Below are positions 41,548 through 52,070 of a stretch of DNA of 64,000 nt, one piece after another. The DNA lies in NCBI GenBank assembly GCA_963706575.1, contig CAVPNL010000005.1, positions 192,001 through 256,000 on the forward strand, in the 5' to 3' direction. Under the pieces are notes generated by a model. It searched no databases and was not told where the DNA came from. It saw only the letters and a list, made by a program, of their open reading frames with translations. Position 1 is the first letter of the stretch; each line of letters opens with the position of its first letter. Origin of the DNA: an uncultured delta proteobacterium (GTDB lineage: Bacteria; Desulfobacterota; Desulfobacteria; Desulfobacterales; JAHEIW01). The translations under genes were made by a program, and so were the position numbers.

Positions 41548-41959
41548 TCATAGCTTTTCGCCCAGCCCGATGACATCATCATTTGAAAACCCCAGACGTT
41601 CATAAACGAAAATCACCGCCGGTTTGAAGGTGCGGACCTGCAAATTGATTTTGGGGCAACCCCTTTTTTTAAGCGCCGACTCGGTTTTCTCGGTCATGCG
41701 GCGGCCGATTTTCTGCCGCTGATAATCCGGATCCACGGCCAGATGATAGATCCAGCCGCGGTGCCCGTCATAGCCGGTCATAACCGTTGCCGACGATACG
41801 ACCGCTGACGGTGCCCGACGAACAGTAGGTTTGAAACTTGCGTTTCATTTCGATATCTTTTTTTGGTTCATTTTGCGGGACCACCAGGTTGCAGCAATGC
41901 CATAACTCAATGACCGCGGATCCGTCAGAAGCCTGATAGGATCGAATCTTAAATTCCAC
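41548..41959 (-). CDS. GNAT acetyltransferase (YpeA-like); frameshifted
   Basis: GYDGHRGWIYHLAVDPDYQRQKIG and GCPKINLQVR motifs. Confidence 0.85.
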
Positions 41960-42221
41960 ATTCGATCGGCGCCGGCAGATCCTCTTTTTTTTGAAAGGAG
42001 TTATATTCCGGTGTTACAATGAGATTTTCTTTTTTATCGATGATATCGGGTTGGTAAACGTTTTCAGCCCAATCATCCGGTTCCACTTCCTCAAAGGCCA
42101 CCGATACGGATTTCTCCTGGCATCCCGCAATTTCGACAACGCTCTTTACGATTTTACGTGCCAGCTGTTTTTTTTGTTCCACGGATCTTCCGGGGTAGAG
42201 TTTTACGATGACGTGCGGCAT
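41949..42221 (-). CDS. 4-oxalocrotonate tautomerase family protein
   Basis: Catalytic Pro after Met; GRSVEQKKQLA and SVSVAFEEV motifs. Confidence 0.9.
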   Translation of the reverse strand: MPHVIVKLYPGRSVEQKKQLARKIVKSVVEIAGCQEKSVSVAFEEVEPDDWAENVYQPDIIDKKENLIVTPEYNSFQKKEDLPAPIECGI

Positions 42222-42352: not shown

Positions 42353-43439
42353 CTAAGCTTTAGGCACTATCGCCTGTGATCTATTGATAAAGGCGCCCAA
42401 CAAGTCATAGAGTTTATAAAGACTGTCGATATTGATGTGTTCATCAGCAGAATGTTGGCTCATATCACCATCAGCTCCCCAGACAATGCCTTTGATGCCA
42501 TGGGCGGATAAAAAGCGGGCGTCACTGGCGCCATGCTCAAAACCGACTTCGCTGTCCTTTGCGATTTCCAGCAGCAGGTCCAGATAGGGGGAGTCACCGC
42601 CTTCAAACAGCGGCTCTTTTTTCTCGACCACCAGTTCTCCCTTAATTTCCTTCTGGATGTTTTTAAAAAGTGCTTCCAGGTCGTCGTTTTCCGTGTAGCG
42701 GATATCGAACAGGGCTTCGGCATAATCCGGGACCTGGTTGGAGACCTTGCCGGCCTGAATCCAGCTGAAATTTAAGGTGCGGTGCCAGTGATCCGGATCC
42801 GAAAGCTCAAAATTTGTCTTCAGCACCTGATAATCGTTGATGAGGTTTTCAATGGCATTCTCTCCCAGCCAGGGTCTTGCGCCGTGAGCGGTCTTGCCTC
42901 TGGCAATCAGCTTTAATTTAACAATGCCTTTTTCTTTGATAACAATTTTGTTTAGACCGCCGCCGTCTAAAGCAATACAAAACTCAGCTTTGATTTCTTT
43001 TAGCGCTTTCTGAGCCGTTAGCACCGCCGATCTCTTCATCAGCCGTGATGATAATACCGAAGGGCAGATCCTTCTGGTCTTTGCCTTCTTTTTGCAGTTG
43101 CTGCAGGTAGTTTTTTACGAAAACCAGGGATAAGGCAGCTGCATACTTGTCGTCGATGCTACCGCGGCCATACAGGGCGTCGCCCTTTACCCGGGGATTA
43201 AACAGGTCATCAGGGCCGTCGACCACATCGATATGGGACATCAGCAAGATGGGAGCAAAGTTACTTTGCGGCATAACGATAACAGACGGAATGTCAGCAT
43301 GATCCAGCCGCCTGTAAGTGGCACCGCACTGCTTTAAATAATCTTCAATAAACGACACACAGCGCTGAATTTCAGCAGGCTGAGAATGCATGGTTTTAAA
43401 GCGAATGAGATCCTCTGTCAACGTGACGAGTTCTTCCAT
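42353..43439 (-). CDS. M20 family metallopeptidase (ArgE/DapE-like); indel near 43020
   Basis: SHIDVV, GRGSIDDK, ADEEIGG, ASDARF and QHSADE motifs. Confidence 0.9.
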
Positions 43440-44126: not shown

Positions 44127-44711
44127 TTATTTTCCGGATGTGCTTTCCATGAAATGATAAAGCAATTTCTGCTCGTCGACTGCCGTGATTTCTTCAGGCA
44201 GCCGTTTCTCCGCCAGCGCGATAGCGGATTCAATCAGCTCTGATCGAATTAAATTTCTGGCCTCTACGATTTGGTTTTCGATTCTCTGCCGGGTACCAGC
44301 CAGCAAAATCATGCTTTCATGACGGGCGTCTTCAATGATACCTGTTTTCTCTTTTCGCCGTCCTCAATGATTCTCTTTTTTACGTTTTTAAAACGGGTGA
44401 TGCTGTTTTTAAGCACTTTGTTTGCTTCTTTAATTTTTTCTTCGGCCGCTTCTTTTTGCTGCTCAAATTTTTTGATCTGGTGATCGATCTCTTCTCTACG
44501 GTTCGAAAAAAAATCTTTTATCGGTTTTCTGCCAAACTTTACCAGGACAAACGCAATGATCGCGAAATTCAACCACCGCATCACCAGATCAAAAGTTGAT
44601 CGCCAGTCATCTGTGGTTTCGGCTGCAGGGCGTCAGTGCTGCCTAAAAGCAGCGCGACACAAACGGCGATCAAATAACAGCCGAAAAATGCGATAGGGTA
44701 ATTTTCCTCAT
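44127..44711 (-). CDS. atpF: ATP synthase Fo subunit b; several indels
   Basis: MRWLNFAIIAFVLVKFGRKPIKDFFSNRR followed by coiled coil; ATG overlaps the upstream stop. Confidence 0.82.
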
Positions 44712-45163
44712 GAATGCTGACTCCGATACAGGACCGCTTCGATAATATGTTTTGCCAGATCCTCAGATTCCTTTTGTACATGTTTTCTGGCTGCTGAGAT
44801 CTGGCTATCGACTTCCTTTTGGGCCTCGGCACTTAATGCGTTAATCTCTTCCCGGGTAGATGCGATTATTTCAGCAGCCTGCAGGCTGCCGGCGGCTTCC
44901 AGCTGTTCCTTTTGCTTAAAGGCTTCATTTCTGACAGCGTTTTCCTGCGCCTCTATCTGATGGGTTAAATCCTCAAACTGGTTTTCGGCTTCGACGATAT
45001 CTTTCTGGACATTTTCAACATAGGTTTCTCTTTCATTCATTAGCTTGCGCAGCGGACGGAACATGATCCGATTGATGATAAACAGAAAAATCAGAAAAGA
45101 GATGACCTGGACGATCAAGGTCTCATTTATGCTGATAAGCGCAATATTGCTGATAATTTCCAT
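44708..45163 (-). CDS. atpF: ATP synthase Fo subunit b'
   Basis: INETLIVQVISFLIFLFIINRIMFRPL followed by coiled coil. Confidence 0.88.
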   Translation of the reverse strand: MEIISNIALISINETLIVQVISFLIFLFIINRIMFRPLRKLMNERETYVENVQKDIVEAENQFEDLTHQIEAQENAVRNEAFKQKEQLEAAGSLQAAEIIASTREEINALSAEAQKEVDSQISAARKHVQKESEDLAKHIIEAVLYRSQHS

Positions 45164-45290: not shown

Positions 45291-45560
45291 TCAAAACTGC
45301 GATCGGTTTAACTTAGACCACAAAAAGAGCAGCAAGGCGATAACCAGCGAATAAATTCCGGTGGACTCGGCAACGGCCTGGCCCACCAGCATGGTGCGGG
45401 TGAGCAGTCCGGCCTCCTGGGGATTTTTACCAATCGCCTCACAGGCCTTTGCGGCCACCATGCCTTCGCCGACGCCGGGGCCGATGGCCCCCAGCCCCAT
45501 CGAAATTCCAGCTCCGATAAATGCGGCTGCTTTGATGATATCCGCGCCTTCGATTGCCAT
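45291..45560 (-). CDS. atpE: ATP synthase c subunit, Na+-binding type (true stop probably at 45313)
   Basis: GPGVGEG in helix 1 and GQAVAESTGIY in helix 2. Confidence 0.92.
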   Translation of the reverse strand: MAIEGADIIKAAAFIGAGISMGLGAIGPGVGEGMVAAKACEAIGKNPQEAGLLTRTMLVGQAVAESTGIYSLVIALLLFLWSKLNRSQF

Positions 45561-45676: not shown

Positions 45677-46650
45677 TTACACCACAAATATCAACACCAG
45701 GCTGATCACCATGGCATAAATCGCCGTCGACTGGGAAACCGCCTGTCCGACCAGCATGATTCGCATCAGGTCGCCGGCATGTTCGACGTTTCGTGCCACC
45801 CATCGCACAGCCCCTTCGGCTGCCATTCCGTTGCCGATTCCCGGACCAATGCCGCCGAATCCCATGCAGAGTCCGGCCGCCAAAAGGGCCATGGCGGCGC
45901 TCAGCGCGTGGACTCGGGAAATGACTTGAACATCAGGATGAAGCTGACCAGCAGCCCGAAGATCGAGGGGGTCTGGGCCACCGCCTGGCCGACCAGCATG
46001 GTCGTGGTCACGCTTGGCGACCGTTGCGGGTTCGGGCGATGCCCTCGCAGCTGGCGCCGGCCGCCAGTCCGCCTCCGTAGCCGGACCCGATGGATGCCAG
46101 CCCCATGCTCAAACCGGCGCCCAGATAGGCCGCCCATGTTGGGGTCAGCGGGGCATTCCGAAATTCGATGAATATCAGCATCAGGGCCACAACCATGGAA
46201 AAGATGGCCGGCGTCTGGCAGACCGCCGATCCGATCAGCATATTGGTCGTCAATTGGGAGGACGCTGCCGGTTGTCTGCGAGATTCCGAAACAGGCCTCT
46301 CCGGCCGGATAGCCTGAGCCGATGCCCGAGCCGATGGCCCCGAAGCCCATACTCAGATCCGGCCCCGAAAAGCGCTGCGGCTTTTAACAGGCTGGGTTGG
46401 CGATGTCCATAAACAGCAGCAGGATGGCGATCACCAGGGCGAAAATGGACGCCGATTCGGCCACCGCCTGTCCCACCAGCATGTTTTTAAAGATTTCGCC
46501 GGAAATTTCCGTGTTCCGGGAAACGGCAATATTGGCCATGGCCGCGGTGTGGCCTTCGCCGATCGCGGCCCCGATGGCGCCAAATCCCATCGCAAAACCG
46601 CCTCCGGTATAGGCGGCCACTTTTACGATGGTTTGAATATCAATTGCCAT
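45677..46650 (-). CDS. atpE: Four-hairpin fused c subunit (about 324 aa after correcting 5 indels); Glu only in hairpin 1
   Basis: Helix-2 motifs GQAVAES, GSAVCQT, GQAVAQT and GQAVSQS; hairpins 2-3 contiguous in ORF 46008-46253. Confidence 0.78.
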
Positions 46651-46654
46651 GGCG

Positions 46655-47328
46655 TCATTTTACCTGCACTGATATGTAGACAACCGTTAGCATCGTAAAT
46701 ACAAAGGCCTGAATGGTGCCGACGAAAAGTCCGAAAAAACGCGTATAAGAAAGGGCGGCAGCGACAACATTGTATGACGAGGTGGGAAACCACCAGGATA
46801 ATGATCGATCCGCCCATGATGTTGCCGAACAGTCGAAAGGATATCGATACGATTTTTGCCAGTTCGCCGATGACATTGAGCGGCATCATAAAAAATATCG
46901 GCTGGAAATATTCCTTGATATAGGCCTTAAACCCCTTGGATTTTATGCCGGCGTAATGGGCGATAAAAAAGCCCATCAGGCCCAGTCCGAGGGTCGTATT
47001 CAGATCTTTGGTCGGTTCGTCCAGATGCGGAATGATGCCCAGCCAGTTGGAAAGCAGCAGAAACAGAAAGAGCGCACAGATGGGGGGCGTAGGTTTTGGC
47101 CAGCTCCTTGCCCAGCGCATCTTCGGTAAGATCGTATAGAAGGGATACGATCAGTTCCCCCAGGGCCTGGATGGGTCGGGGCAGGATTTTTCTTTTGCGG
47201 GCAAACAGCCCGAGCACGATCAGGATCGAAAAAACGATCCAGGTCATCACGATAACTTCAAGATTGATGGTGATGTTGTGGCCGAAGAAAGGAATTATCA
47301 GTTGGTGTAATCTCCCAAGTTCGCCCAT
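46655..47328 (-). CDS. atpB: ATP synthase Fo subunit a; several indels
   Basis: PTKDLNTT, SISFRLFGNI (essential Arg) and IQAFVFTMLT motifs. Confidence 0.9.
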
Positions 47329-47340
47329 AAAAATATCCGT

Positions 47341-47727
47341 TTAAGCCTGTTTTTTCCCCATTGCGGGAATAAGGATTAATGCATGTTCGGCCAGAATGAC
47401 CAGCTGAATCATAAAGATGCCCATGATGGCTGCGACCAGATTAAACTGTTCGTACTTGACGGCTGCGATCAGCGGGATCGCCAGCAAAAGGTATCTGATA
47501 ATGATGGACCCCATGGAAATCGAAAAGGTTTTGGCCTTTGACCGGCCAAACCTCAACGCTATGGATTTACCCATTAGAATAAAATTGAGCACACTGAAAA
47601 TAGCACCCAGGATCAATCCTTTGCCCAGCGGTTTATGTCCCATCAGGATAAACACTATCCCGACACCGATGGAAAAGGTTAATGCCAGCGTCGTGTATTT
47701 TTTTTGGGCTTGCTTAACGGCGTCCAT
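47341..47727 (-). CDS. atpI: ATP synthase protein I
   Basis: Four-TM protein directly upstream of atpB; GLILGAIFSVLNF...IIRY. Confidence 0.8.
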   Translation of the reverse strand: MDAVKQAQKKYTTLALTFSIGVGIVFILMGHKPLGKGLILGAIFSVLNFILMGKSIALRFGRSKAKTFSISMGSIIIRYLLLAIPLIAAVKYEQFNLVAAIMGIFMIQLVILAEHALILIPAMGKKQA

Positions 47728-47980
47728 TTGTTGAATCTTTTTTGTTCTCCGGCGGGGTTTTAAGGGTTTCTGAAATTTGCCGGTAGACGGTGACGGCACC
47801 GCCGACGATGCCTAGGATGATAAAAAGGGTGACAAATATTCCTCTGGTTCCCAACCATTTGTCCAGATACAATCCGATAAAAAAACAAAAAACGATGCAA
47901 CCGGCCATTGTCAGGCCGATTTGCATGACGATTGAAAGGCTCTCGGCCCAGGCTCGGTTTTTTTTATAATTAAAAACCAT
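47714..47980 (-). CDS. AtpZ/AtpI (ATPase gene 1) family protein
   Basis: IGLYLDKWLGT motif, two TMs, first gene of the Fo operon. Confidence 0.85.
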   Translation of the reverse strand: MVFNYKKNRAWAESLSIVMQIGLTMAGCIVFCFFIGLYLDKWLGTRGIFVTLFIILGIVGGAVTVYRQISETLKTPPENKKDSTNGRR

Positions 47981-48254
47981 TGTCCATAAAGATTCATTGA
48001 AACTAAGGAACATGTTTAAAACGTATTCGATTAGCATAGCAACAAGATCTTTGCAAGCGAATTCCCACCGCACAGTGGGCACAAAACCACCCTTGACAGT
48101 GACGGGTGTGTTCCTATAATCATTAATATAATTTGGCTGACGAATTCAATCCGGTGATCAAGGCCTCATCATGGAAGGAATGAATGCAATTCCGGTTCTC
48201 AATCTGTTTTCCCTTTGAATCCTATTACCTTAACATTTAAGGAGGGCATTTATT

Positions 48255-48830
48255 ATGGGAAATATCTATAAATATTTGGCCGTATTCCTCGGCGTACTGC
48301 TGGTATCGGGCGGTTTTGCATGGGCCGATTCTCAACCGCCTGCCGTAGGCGGTGTGCTGCCCGAATTTACACTTCCCGTACCCCAAAGCGATGAGTACCA
48401 GAAATATTTAGGCCTGGCAGGCAAAGAATCTTTCAAAATTTCTGAGATAAGCGCCGAAGTTGTCATTGTTGAGATATTCAGTATGTACTGACCCTACTGT
48501 CAGAGGGAGGCTCCCTCTATCAACGAGATGTACCGCAAAATCGAAAGCGACAAAAGGCTCAAAGACAAAGTGAAGCTGGTGGGCATCGGTGCCGGAAATT
48601 CAGCTTTCGAGGTCGGCTATTTTAAAAAGACCTACGATATACCGTTTCCCCTTTTTCCGGATGGCAATTTTTCAATCCACAAGAAGGTCGGCGAAGTTCG
48701 AACGCCTTTTTTTATTTGTATTCGCATAAAGAAAGATGGCAGCCACGAAGTTTTTTATTCTAAAGTTGGCGGTGCCAAAGACGCCGATCTACTCCTCAAA
48801 AAACTTCTCCAGGATTCGGGGTTGCTATAA
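48255..48830 (+). CDS. Exported thioredoxin-fold (TlpA/Prx-like) selenoprotein with UPYC motif
   Basis: ORFs 48255-48491 and 48528-48830 share a frame; TGA at 48489 gives FSMY-U-PYC; SECIS-like hairpin follows; signal peptide present. Confidence 0.88.
48502..48518 (+). promoter_or_regulatory. Bacterial SECIS-like hairpin
   Basis: AGAGGGA-GGC-TCCCTCT starting 10 nt after the UGA. Confidence 0.75.
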
Positions 48831-48843
48831 GGAGGTGCTCCCT

Positions 48844-49446
48844 ATGAAAAAATTTATAATCATCAATATCGTACCCGCTCTGATCTTAGTGTTATTCGTC
48901 GCAACTGCTTTTGGAGCCTCACAAGCGTTTAAGGATAATATCTATGATCCGGGACAACTTAAACCGGTTGACAGCACCTTAAAAGTCAAAATTGGCGAAG
49001 CGGCACCGGACTTTACGCTGCCGTCTGTATCCGGAGAAAAAATTTCTCTCAGCCAGTACCGGGGCAAAAAACATGTGGTCATTTCGTTTGTCCCCGCAGC
49101 CTGGACCCCGGTGTGTTCCGATCAGTGGCCGGGTTATAATATTGTCAAAGAAATCTTTAACGAAAACGATGCCGTGCTTCTGGGCATCACGGTCGATAAC
49201 ATACCGACGCTGTATGCCTGGACCAATCAGATGGGGGACTTGTGGTTTCCGGTGCTTTCAGATTTCTGGCCCCACGGCGCAGTGGCTGAAAAATACGGTG
49301 TGCTGCGGTCCAGCGGCGTTAGCGAGCGGGCATTGATCTTCATTGATAAAAAGGGGATCATTCAGGATATTCAGGTTTCGGATATCAATGTCAGGCCTGA
49401 TCTGGCACAGTGTGCGACGACCCTGGAAAAAATGAATAAAAAATAA
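48844..49446 (+). CDS. Peroxiredoxin (AhpE/BCP-like) with signal peptide
   Basis: PAAWTPVC (PxxxTxxC), SDFWPHG and SERA motifs; GGAGG before ATG at 48844. Confidence 0.88.
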   Translation: MKKFIIINIVPALILVLFVATAFGASQAFKDNIYDPGQLKPVDSTLKVKIGEAAPDFTLPSVSGEKISLSQYRGKKHVVISFVPAAWTPVCSDQWPGYNIVKEIFNENDAVLLGITVDNIPTLYAWTNQMGDLWFPVLSDFWPHGAVAEKYGVLRSSGVSERALIFIDKKGIIQDIQVSDINVRPDLAQCATTLEKMNKK

Positions 49447-49452
49447 TGGAAG

Positions 49453-49944
49453 ATGACTTTGATGGATCTGATTCGGCGCACGTTTATATCTCTAGCAGCC
49501 CTGCTCTTAATGGTTTTCTTCATCATGCATACTGATGCGAGTGCCGCAGTCACCATTCAGAAGATTTCGGAATCGGCGCTTGATGAGTTGATCAATACCC
49601 GTGACCATAAGATGGTGGTCACCTTTATGGCGGCCTGGTGTGGACCCTGCATTGACGAGCTGCCTGTCTTAAACAAATTATACCAAAAGTATAAAGTCCA
49701 GGGCCTAAAATTGATCGGTATCAGTATCGATCTGGCAGGGCCTCAGGCGATGCAGCCGATCATTGATAAATTGAAGGTCGGTTTTCCGGTTTACTGGTAT
49801 GGCGAATCCGCCGTCCAAAAATTTTCCATATACGCGATACCGATGATTTTTTGGGTGAAAGACGGCCGGATTGTCGAAAAAATGCCGGGCAGGCGATCCG
49901 GTAAGGAGCTGGACAAAAAGATTCGGAAATTTTTGGCGGAATAG
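49453..49944 (+). CDS. TlpA family disulfide reductase
   Basis: WCGPC motif, cis-Pro (AIP), N-terminal signal/anchor. Confidence 0.9.
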   Translation: MTLMDLIRRTFISLAALLLMVFFIMHTDASAAVTIQKISESALDELINTRDHKMVVTFMAAWCGPCIDELPVLNKLYQKYKVQGLKLIGISIDLAGPQAMQPIIDKLKVGFPVYWYGESAVQKFSIYAIPMIFWVKDGRIVEKMPGRRSGKELDKKIRKFLAE

Positions 49945-50118: not shown

Positions 50119-52070
50119 CTAATTTCCCTTGAGAGATTCCTTGCTGTTAAGCGCCTTCTCAACAGCATCCAAAATCTGATCCACGGTGTAAAAGGCGCTT
50201 TTAAAAACCGGATTGCCGTCCGGCGCGAAAACAACCAGCAGGGGGACCGTCAGACTGCCGACCTCCTCAAGTTTGGCTTTTCCGGCGGGATTGTTACCGG
50301 TGATGTCGACTTTCATCGCAACGATATGCTTCTGTGCCAGAAGCTTGATAATTCGTTGATCATGCAGCACACTTTCCTCGAGCACCTTGCAGTTTAGACA
50401 CCATTCGGCCGTAAAATCCATTACGACTGTTTTTCGTTGCACGATGGCCGCCTCAAAACGCTCGGGTGTGTAATAGGTCCATTTAATCGGTCCTTCATCC
50501 GACAAACGCCATGCCCCCCAGATTGGCGACACCATCAAAATAAAACCCAGGCTCACAAAAACACGTTTTGGTTATTTTATTTCCAGCCAGTGCCAGTGTC
50601 CGAAAAGCCAGCCAGGCGCCGCCGGCTGCAACCAGACCCATTACCGGCCACCAGTAAATTTTGCTCGGCGGGTCTGGGTGCAGAACTCAGCAGGGCACTG
50701 ATGCCAACGCCCAGAAAATAGGCAGCCGCCGCTAACATAAACAGGCCCATCACCTGTTTGATGAGCTCGCTGGCCGGTCCGGCTTTCGGCATGCGGTTGA
50801 CCAGATGGGGGAACGCTGAAAGCAACAGATACGGCAGGGCCATGCCCCCGCCGATGGCAGCAAAAGTAGACACGGTAGTCAGGGGACTTTGCGTCGCTGC
50901 CCAGGCGGCGGCCGCCCCCATAAAAGGCGCCGTACAGGGCGTTGATAAAACGGCTGCCAGAATGCCCAGCGCAAAAGATCCCCGCAGACTGTCCTGCTGG
51001 GGGTTGATCATGTAGATGAATTGGGGCAGACGAATCGAAAAAAAGCCAAACATCCCCAATGCCATGATCCCGATGACGCTGCCGACCAGGATGGTAAAAA
51101 CCGGATATTGGAACAATTGATTGGTGGCGGTAAAATCACTGACCAGTGCGATCAGGATACCCAGACCGATCCAAAACGCCAAAAGCCCCAGAGACATGAC
51201 CAATCCCAGCAGAAAACACCTTTTTCGATCTTCGGCTGCGTGGGACAAACTGATGATCTTGATCGGTATCAGTGGCAGGACACAGGGGGTAAAGTTCAGC
51301 AGCATTCCGCCCAACGCCGCTGTAAAGAGGAGCAATATCCATCCGAACCCCGATGCGGTATTGAAAGAAAATTTCCAGCCGAAAATATTGAATTTGATCC
51401 GTTTTGCCGGTGAACCCTCAACTCCGGAGGCCAGATTCACAAACAGTTCTGCATTTATTTTTGATGGGGTGACTCCGGATCCGGCCACCAGCAGCGTTTC
51501 TTTTAAGCGCTTTTTTTGCGGAAACAGGCAGTAGGTGTCCGAGCACGCCTGGTATTCTACCATTAATTCCAGTTCGATGATCCCCGGTTTTATCTGCTCA
51601 TCCAATTTCATCGGCAGGTAGATGATGGCCCGGCCTTCAAACGACATCAACGCGCCGCTGGCATAATCGACTTCAACCGGTATGGCCTGCGGGAAGCGGG
51701 CGGTCTCGATGGTGACGCCTTCGGGGGCAGCGATAACCTGAACTTTGGTGGGGTAGGGTTTGAAATCTTCAAAAGGCTGGACCTGGCTTTCATCGGCATT
51801 GATGTGAATGCCGTCTTTAATATCGATCACAACGGCCAGGACAACCGGGTCTCCGGGACGCGCCCGGTCAACCGACCAGGCAGTCTTGACTTGAACCACA
51901 TCTGAGGCCGAAGGGGAATCGGCAGCCTGCAACAGGCTGCCGATTTCTTTTTGGTCTTTGGCAATGGAAGCCCACGGCACCATTACCACCAAAATTAGTC
52001 CCAATCCGCAGGTGAAAACAACACGTTTCATATGGGTCAAAACAGCTTCGTATTTGTTACTCAGGTTCAT
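50119..52070 (-). CDS. dsbD: DsbD-like thiol:disulfide interchange protein; indels near 50570-50670
   Basis: YQACSDTYCLFP (alpha), TPCVLP and TPCTAP (TM), WCLNC (Trx) motifs. Confidence 0.88.

Follow-up and report, generated by a model that had tools for sequence, protein, structure and literature searches.

Introduction

The number of ion sites that pass in each turn of the rotor fixes the ion cost of ATP in a rotary ATP synthase. What, then, would be the role of a rotor-type gene that encodes four c-subunit hairpins in tandem and has an ion-binding glutamate in only one of them? Such a gene – here named c4 – lies on the minus strand at positions 45677-46650 of a 64,000-nucleotide stretch of DNA (contig CAVPNL010000005.1, positions 192,001 to 256,000, of assembly GCA_963706575.1) from an uncultured delta proteobacterium of the order Desulfobacterales. 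We refer to this whole stretch as the window. The gene is broken by several frameshifts in the window, and whether it is real is part of the question.

The F/V-hybrid Na+ c-ring of Acetobacterium woodii has the composition c1(c2/3)9 (PDB 4BEM), with a two-hairpin c1 subunit of which one site is silent, and Clostridium aceticum has a c1 subunit likewise. To our knowledge no F-type ring but that of A. woodii has been characterised with a site missing, one of its eleven, and we know of no case in which three to five consecutive silent hairpins accompany a single site. Searches of the open-access literature and of bioRxiv found no account of a bacterial F-type c subunit having more than two hairpins; the accessible part of a 2026 preprint on rotary ATPase evolution describes F-type rings as "predominantly" made of single hairpins, and names A. 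woodii as the only mixed one.

Here, we find that the window gene is an orthologue of a conserved 324-aa four-hairpin F-type c subunit, and we describe its distribution, gene context, residue pattern and relationship to longer forms of the protein. We then weigh what such a subunit would do in a rotor.

Results

Four hairpins and one ion-binding glutamate

A search of the window with the PF00137 profile gives six matches above the cut-off, which correspond to the four hairpins of c4 (two of them split by frameshifts) and to the single-hairpin c subunit (single c) encoded in the same region. The c4 gene starts with an ATG at 46650 and ends with a stop codon at 45677-45679. An initial annotation made from the letters of the sequence had described four tandem hairpins with helix 2 motifs beginning AES, CQT, AQT and SQS, a Glu in the first of them only, and the helix 1 motif AIGEG in that same hairpin. 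This description is borne out: the profile matches and a three-frame translation read together with the list of open reading frames (ORFs) recover the same motifs (given in full in Table 1), and translation and alignment place the ion-binding Glu in hairpin 1 alone, with Gln at the equivalent position of hairpins 2-4.

The frame of c4 changes five or six times. The breaks were placed by a frame-aware alignment of protein to DNA – plain tblastn was confused by the internal repeats – and correspond to single-base insertions or deletions (indels) near 46397, at the junction of hairpins 1 and 2; 46357, inside helix 1 of hairpin 2; 46277, in the loop of hairpin 2; 46030 (or 46031 together with 46015), in the loop of hairpin 3; and 45905, at the junction of hairpins 3 and 4. 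The initial annotation had correctly supposed that frame corrections were needed but had confined them to the junctions, where only two of the breaks lie; three are within hairpins 2 and 3. Its observation that these two hairpins share a frame agrees with ORF 46008-46253, which joins helix 2 of hairpin 2 to helix 1 of hairpin 3.

Intact orthologues and their distribution

In a relative of the same genus (G007), c4 is a single intact ORF of 324 aa with the AES/CQT/AQT/SQS motifs, and hence the E/Q/Q/Q pattern (L012:357-1331), and it gives four PF00137 matches in one open frame of ~325 aa. Its AlphaFold2 model has eight helices forming four hairpins, at a predicted local distance difference test score (pLDDT) of 95 and a predicted TM-score (pTM) of 0.91. 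The protein of ~324 aa with eight transmembrane segments that had been reconstructed from the broken window sequence thus has an unbroken counterpart, and the 324-aa proteins of relatives align colinearly with the window DNA over the whole gene, start codon (46650) to stop codon (45677). Small independent c genes split by real stops, an outcome for which the initial annotation had left room, are rejected as a reading, as relatives carry one open frame.

The gene is widespread in the order. Among 201 genomes sampled evenly from it, 118 have a match to c4 at E≤1e-30, well beyond what chance would give; the counts for high-quality genomes and for genera are 89 of 148 and 81 of 125. Most of the matches listed lie within open frames of ~325 aa, and only this genome and one other (G191) have, among the matches listed, a stop inside the match. 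When contigs were scanned, 269 of 461 candidate stretches were found to encode a c4 relative; the best 80 of these 269 include Desulfosarcina widdelii PP31 (a complete genome), Olavius symbionts, Desulfococcaceae, Candidatus Desulfatibia and Desulfacyla. A protein search with c4 gave 2281 matches at E≤0.001 among 8000 scored candidates, and the source label, where present, is "ATP synthase F0 subunit C". Two multi-hairpin c loci are present in some genomes (G022, G027, G062 and G089); in G027 these are a 324-aa and a 404-aa form on separate contigs.

Gene context: a candidate second Fo operon

The c4 gene is part of a minus-strand operon with the order AtpZ-AtpI-a-c4-single c-b-b' (Table 1). 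A single-hairpin c subunit with the motif E-S-T-x-x-Y is encoded directly downstream of c4 in 89 of 90 loci, the remaining locus ending at a contig end, and it is more conserved than c4 (mean column identity of 92% vs 66%). In the window the single c has the full set of Na+ ligands, numbered as in Ilyobacter tartaricus; its last codons are altered by an indel, and relatives end in LLLLFVV (alignment to L051).

Table 1. Positions of c4, its hairpins and the neighbouring Fo genes in the window
Feature	Position	Strand	Basis and remarks
AtpZ-like small membrane protein	47717..48082	-	PF09527, E 1.2e-15
AtpI	47344..47799	-	PF03899, E 5.8e-7
Fo a subunit, with stator Arg (SFRLFGN)	46655..47328	-	PF00119 in three pieces; G007 alignment; ~4 indels near 47085, 46768, 46755, 46739
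c4, E/Q/Q/Q	45677..46650	-	PF00137 and frame-aware alignment; 5-6 single-base indels
c4 hairpin 1: helix 1 AIGEG (Glu at Gln32-equivalent), helix 2 AESASIF	46398..46650	-	Glu in 87/87 relatives
c4 hairpin 2: helix 1 GIGSG, helix 2 CQTPAIF, silent site	46161..46397	-	Module duplicated in 5-/6-hairpin forms
c4 hairpin 3: helix 1 GYGGG, helix 2 AQTPSIF, silent site	45906..46160	-	
c4 hairpin 4: helix 1 GIGNG, helix 2 SQSTAIY, no carboxylate, Ser/Thr/Tyr kept	45677..45905	-	ORF 45677-45892; N, Q, S, T, Y invariant in 87/87
Single-hairpin Na+-type c (E32, E65, S66, T67, Y70)	45291..45560	-	PF00137, 66.7 bits; motif in 87/87 relatives
Fo b	44708..45163	-	PF00430; single tblastn high-scoring pair; likely start is an internal Met aligned to the 151-aa protein of relatives
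Fo b'	44127..44715	-	G007 orthologue matches PF00430; 2 indels near 44627, 44340

The F1 genes (b', b, delta, alpha, gamma, beta and epsilon) are on another contig, as is the only atpD above the cut-off in this assembly, and by its gene content the c4 set appears to be a second, Na+-type Fo gene set that stands apart from the F1 operon. In G007 there is a further Fo set (AtpZ-AtpI-a-c, L099:6535-8229) whose c subunit reads LIESLCIY, without Thr67, and is probably H+-coupled. One atpD is above the cut-off in each of G007, G004 and G012, and five near-complete c4-bearing genomes each have two a genes and one atpD once any atpD that has an a gene at ≤3 kb (N-ATPase-like operons) is set aside. These gene counts suggest that the relatives have one F1 with two alternative Fo sets. 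In the present assembly, which is 92% complete, the Na+ Fo set is present and no second a/c set was found; the other set is either missing from the assembly or has been lost.

Two other assignments of the operon were rejected. It is not an N-ATPase (atpDCQRBEFAG), since it has no F1 genes such as a beta and epsilon of its own, and c4 is not an A/V-type K subunit, its neighbours being F-type a, b, b', AtpI and AtpZ.

Several further features of these loci were observed. In one family the match to the a subunit is downstream rather than upstream of the four-hairpin gene (G151:C1:928606-930309 and G090:C1:2371800-2374146), so gene order in the second Fo operon varies. Some genomes have, besides the two Fo sets, extra self-contained operons with atpD at ≤3 kb from an a gene that resemble N-ATPase operons (G072:C1:17398-22845; G097:C3:1666646-1673673; G157:C5:552353-557890 and C6:833131-839458). 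Beside the atp operon of the window is a cluster of thiol-redox genes, with thioredoxin-like and peroxiredoxin-like ORFs (48255-49944, plus strand) and a DsbD-like ORF (50119-52070, minus strand), which is syntenic with G007.

Residues of the ion site

Residues at the site positions were counted in 87 four-hairpin relatives (Table 2). In hairpin 1 of c4 the residues E32, E65 and S66 are present, but positions 67 and 70 are A and F. In Na+ rings, according to PMC3692424, the ion is bound by Glu65 and residue 32 of one subunit and by Ser66 and the Val63 carbonyl of the adjacent one, with hydrogen bonds from Ser66 and Tyr70 to Glu65 and a water held by Thr67. If c4 shares this geometry, the A67 and F70 of hairpin 1 would serve the next, silent site, and the Glu of hairpin 1 would have a complete site only where a preceding subunit supplies Ser/Thr/Tyr. 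Hairpin 4 would keep its Ser/Thr/Tyr in spite of lacking a carboxylate because these would serve the Glu of the next subunit. What hairpins 1 and 4 each require would be available only inside a ring, which fits a place for c4 in one.

Table 2. Residues at ion-site positions in each hairpin of c4 and in single c (n=87)
Hairpin	Glu65 position	+1	+2	+5	Helix 1
c4 hairpin 1	E 87/87	S 84, T 3	A 83	F 87/87	E 70, Q 11, other 6
c4 hairpin 2	Q 87/87	T 87/87	P 87/87	F 87/87	S 61, A 26
c4 hairpin 3	Q 87/87	T 87/87	P 85, A 2	F 87/87	G 83, S 4
c4 hairpin 4	Q 87/87	S 87/87	T 87/87	Y 87/87	N 87/87
Single c	E 87/87	S 87/87	T 87/87	Y 87/87	E 76, Q 11

The helix 1 residue is Q in hairpin 1 of 11 loci and in single c of 11 loci, and is Glu in both proteins of the window; the two genes seem to have undergone the change together. 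The 11 loci that were checked (L008-L013 and L019-L023) form one close group with Q in hairpin 1. Loop residues of the R-x-P type are nearly invariant (R45, P127, R206, P208 and R297). Across 119 representatives of multi-hairpin clusters, Tyr at +5 is found in the last hairpin of 94 and in the first hairpin of six.

A modular series of four-, five- and six-hairpin forms

The 120 nearest clusters at 90% identity comprise 54 with the pattern EQQQ, 49 with EQQQQ, 13 with EQQQQQ and four with other patterns. How the longer forms arose was addressed with a quick maximum-likelihood tree of 131 hairpins and one outgroup, built on 80 columns and with many unresolved forks. This tree has one clade each for the first, the penultimate and the last hairpins, with supports of 100, 97 and 96 in the Shimodaira-Hasegawa-like approximate likelihood ratio test (SH-aLRT), and the additional hairpins of the five- and six-hairpin proteins fall in the clade of hairpin 2 (SH-aLRT 88), several of them as protein-specific pairs. 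Duplication of hairpin 2 is thus how the silent arc lengthens.

Among representatives further away are the patterns EQ, EQQ, EQE, EQED (18), EQEE (7) and EEEE (5), and there are all-Glu forms with seven or 13 hairpins. The very long distant c-type proteins with seven or 13 hairpins, all with Glu, are P0151 (1139 aa), P0182 (968 aa), P0206 (631 aa) and P0187 (524 aa).

Relationship to known c subunits

The likening of c4 to the c1 subunit of A. woodii, made at the outset, was apt. By sequence c1 is the best match in PDB (4bem_J, E 3.5e-22), and it is also the best match by fold, with a root-mean-square deviation of 1.4 A over 157 columns; in the fold search no solved chain spanned all four hairpins, the TM-score on the query being ≤0.45. 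Both proteins are encoded in an F-type operon, and their genes immediately precede that of a single-hairpin Na+ c subunit. Hairpins are fused in c1 and in the c4 of relatives, which is one open frame; in the window c4 joins up after 5-6 frame corrections. The polarity of c1 and c4 is also the same, with Glu and F(+5) in the first hairpin and Gln and Y(+5) in the last; the c1 motifs are AETSGIF followed by AQTTGIY, and PMC7911925 bears out this polarity. The last hairpin keeps Thr/Thr/Tyr in c1 and Ser/Thr/Tyr in c4. The differences are that c1, a V-type-like 16-kDa proteolipid, has two hairpins and one silent site, whereas c4 has four hairpins in 324 aa, three consecutive silent sites and relatives with five or six hairpins; that c4 is encoded in a second Fo operon apart from F1; that helix 1 carries Glu, and not Gln, in most of the c4 family; and that co-assembly with single-hairpin subunits has been shown for c1, whereas for c4 it is suggested by the genes. 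On every testable count, save the two-hairpin definition and the separate Fo operon, c4 is like c1.

Other c subunits share fewer features. The c subunit of Fusobacterium nucleatum (PDB 3ZK1/3ZK2) has the same two-carboxylate motif – Glu32 with Glu65/Ser66/Thr67/Tyr70 in single c, and Glu32 with Glu65/Ser66 in hairpin 1 of c4 – but is a single hairpin, and in its homomeric c11 ring no position lacks a site. The K/c subunits of A/V-type enzymes, such as Enterococcus hirae NtpK, in which the site is built from helices 2-4 of one chain, the eukaryotic V-ATPase c subunit and the archaeal three- and 13-hairpin forms, resemble c4 in having fused hairpins with fewer sites than hairpins. The fold matches to them cover two of the four hairpins, with a TM-score of ~0.8 on the target, but sequence identity is ~20% and they belong to A/V-type operons, in contrast to the F-type context of c4; the archaeal forms are described in a section of PMC9171764. 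Engineered fused c-rings of Bacillus PS3 (c2 to c10) demonstrate that several F-type hairpins in one polypeptide can work in a ring, as related in a passage of PMC8809890 citing Mitome 2004. These are artificial constructs, and they differ from c4 further in their response to loss of a Glu, considered below.

The frameshifts of the window

Approximately 17-18 single-base indels affect seven genes between 41.5 and 52 kb of the window: a gene at 41551-42221, an M20 peptidase gene (42353-43439), b', single c, c4, a and the DsbD-like gene. Outside c4, there are ~4 in the a subunit, two in b' and five in the three unrelated neighbours, and the 3' end of single c is disturbed. No indels were found in the ~9 kb that could be compared with G007 at 53-62.6 kb of the window, nor in the delta-epsilon genes (~5.1 kb) of the 5.6-kb F1 operon on the other contig, where b' lies within a short open frame. 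A genome-wide proxy for such patchiness, the fraction of bases covered by stop-free frames ≥200 aa long, is 0.69-0.85 for the individual contigs and 0.50 in the 16-kb bin that contains the locus.

The damage to c4 consists of indels only, and the frame-corrected gene has no in-frame stop. In comparison with 80 relatives, the corrected protein departs from none of 108 invariant columns and from one of 153 columns that are at least 95% conserved, a level that intact relatives (median 0) also show. Five single bases at 46651-46776 of the window are missing from the short-read contig of a relative. A search of sequencing runs for this genome returned one run, with 5% of the words, and only contigs of relatives at <95% likeness. 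We conclude that the frameshifts are most likely local assembly errors in a poor consensus patch of an otherwise decent assembly.

A truly decaying operon, in which the frameshifts would be real and c4, a, c and b' would be pseudogenes in this organism, is in our view improbable. Decay would account for the indel density of the operon, which at 12-13 in 3.2 kb is ~6x that of its flanks (5 in ~7 kb), and for the absence of indels from the F1 operon, and with the nearest relative at ~80% DNA identity a few per cent of neutral substitutions would be hard to see. It sits poorly, however, with the breaks in the unrelated peptidase, DsbD-like and 41551-42221 genes, with damage by indels alone that leaves the invariant columns intact, and with the extra bases in the window suggested by the relative's short-read contig; moreover, the assembly has no other a or c gene, so that decay would leave it with no Fo unless one lies within the missing ~8%. 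The practical message for the window is that the gene is real and the local sequence unreliable.

Discussion

A proposed silent arc in a mixed Na+ ring

We think it rather probable that c4 is a rotor subunit of a second, Na+-type Fo, in which it forms a mixed ring with single c, and that the frameshifts of the window are errors of assembly. According to this proposal, c4 would sit in the c-ring beside single-hairpin Na+ c subunits, as c1 does in A. woodii. Completion of the Glu site in hairpin 1 would fall to Ser66/Thr67/Tyr70 of the subunit before it, hairpin 4 would lend its Ser/Thr/Tyr to the Glu of the subunit after it, and the three sites between hairpin 1 and that next subunit would carry no ion. 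Every c4 built into a ring would cost it three ion sites per turn – four or five with the five- and six-hairpin forms – and so lower the Na+/ATP ratio; purely as an illustration, a ring of 11 hairpins, the size of known Na+ rings, would with one c4 have 8 sites and use ~2.7 Na+ per ATP. The sequences show the gene, its conservation, its neighbours and its residues; membership of the ring is plausible given the adjacency of the genes and the residue patterns, the stoichiometry and the lower Na+/ATP ratio are inferred, and the enzyme may run as a synthase or as a Na+ pump. There is a precedent in A. woodii, whose enzyme with its one silent site synthesizes ATP at a low threshold (PMC9171764).

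Several points weigh against this proposal. The engineered fused c10 of Bacillus PS3 lost ATP synthesis once one hairpin carried Gln in place of Glu (PMC8809890, citing Mitome 2004), whereas the c4 family keeps three to five Gln hairpins, and an arc of that length is therefore mechanically hard to explain. The supplement of PMC11887813, examined for proteome evidence, has no Atp entries. The 90 loci probably include some duplicate genomes, and the number of independent genomes is nearer 80. The covariation of Q and E in helix 1 is a single event in one clade. Tyr at +5 is a weak rule within subunits, being present in 11 of 117 hairpins that precede an acid-bearing hairpin and in two of 151 that precede one without; we dropped it as a mark of every hairpin before an acid-bearing one and keep the first/last pattern. 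To these may be added the greater density of indels within the operon, discussed above.

The alternative that c4 forms rings of its own, such as three copies giving 12 hairpins and three sites, with single c in separate rings or used under other conditions, seems unlikely to us. The Ser/Thr/Tyr of hairpin 4 could equally well complete the hairpin 1 Glu of another c4, and subunits of four, five and six hairpins fit rings of 10, 12 or 15 hairpins, though this is arithmetic and not data. The single c gene is nonetheless directly next to c4 in nearly every locus and is the better conserved of the two, the sole solved precedent is a mixed ring (4BEM), and the 1-1.5 Na+ per ATP of such a ring would, on general bioenergetic grounds, be insufficient for synthesis at ordinary driving forces.

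Very unlikely, in our estimation, is that c4 is no working part of the rotor but a regulatory or assembly element, acting as an assembly template or as an ion-less arc that comes to rest at the a subunit, where it would block rotation or leak: the single Gln hairpin that stops the engineered ring would suit such a role, and the Gln, Thr and Pro of the silent sites, reported as invariant (87/87), suggest a selected interaction over simple loss, but c-subunit loop residues are present in all four hairpins, the model predicts a regular four-hairpin arc, the A. woodii enzyme synthesizes ATP with one Gln hairpin (PMC9171764), and an arc within the ring would be rotor part and regulator at once, so that this role overlaps with that of c4 in a mixed ring.

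Implications for rotary enzymes of the order

More than half of the genomes sampled from this order, a major one among marine sulfate reducers, encode a conserved natural subunit in which three to five ion-less units follow one another. This raises the question of how the interface between a and c carries the rotor across a long silent arc, and of what ion/ATP ratio is actually used by organisms at the thermodynamic limit. A cultured and fully sequenced carrier, D. widdelii PP31, exists, and these questions are therefore testable by established methods.

More tentatively, it is possible that many Desulfobacterales have a second, swappable Na+ motor for one F1 head, with a built-in ion-less arc of three to five hairpins that is tuned by duplication of hairpin 2, and that would provide gears of very low Na+/ATP, down to where one dead site is enough to stop an engineered ring. 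If this is true, an F-type motor could pass long ion-less sectors, and these cells would shift gear by exchanging Fo and not the whole enzyme.

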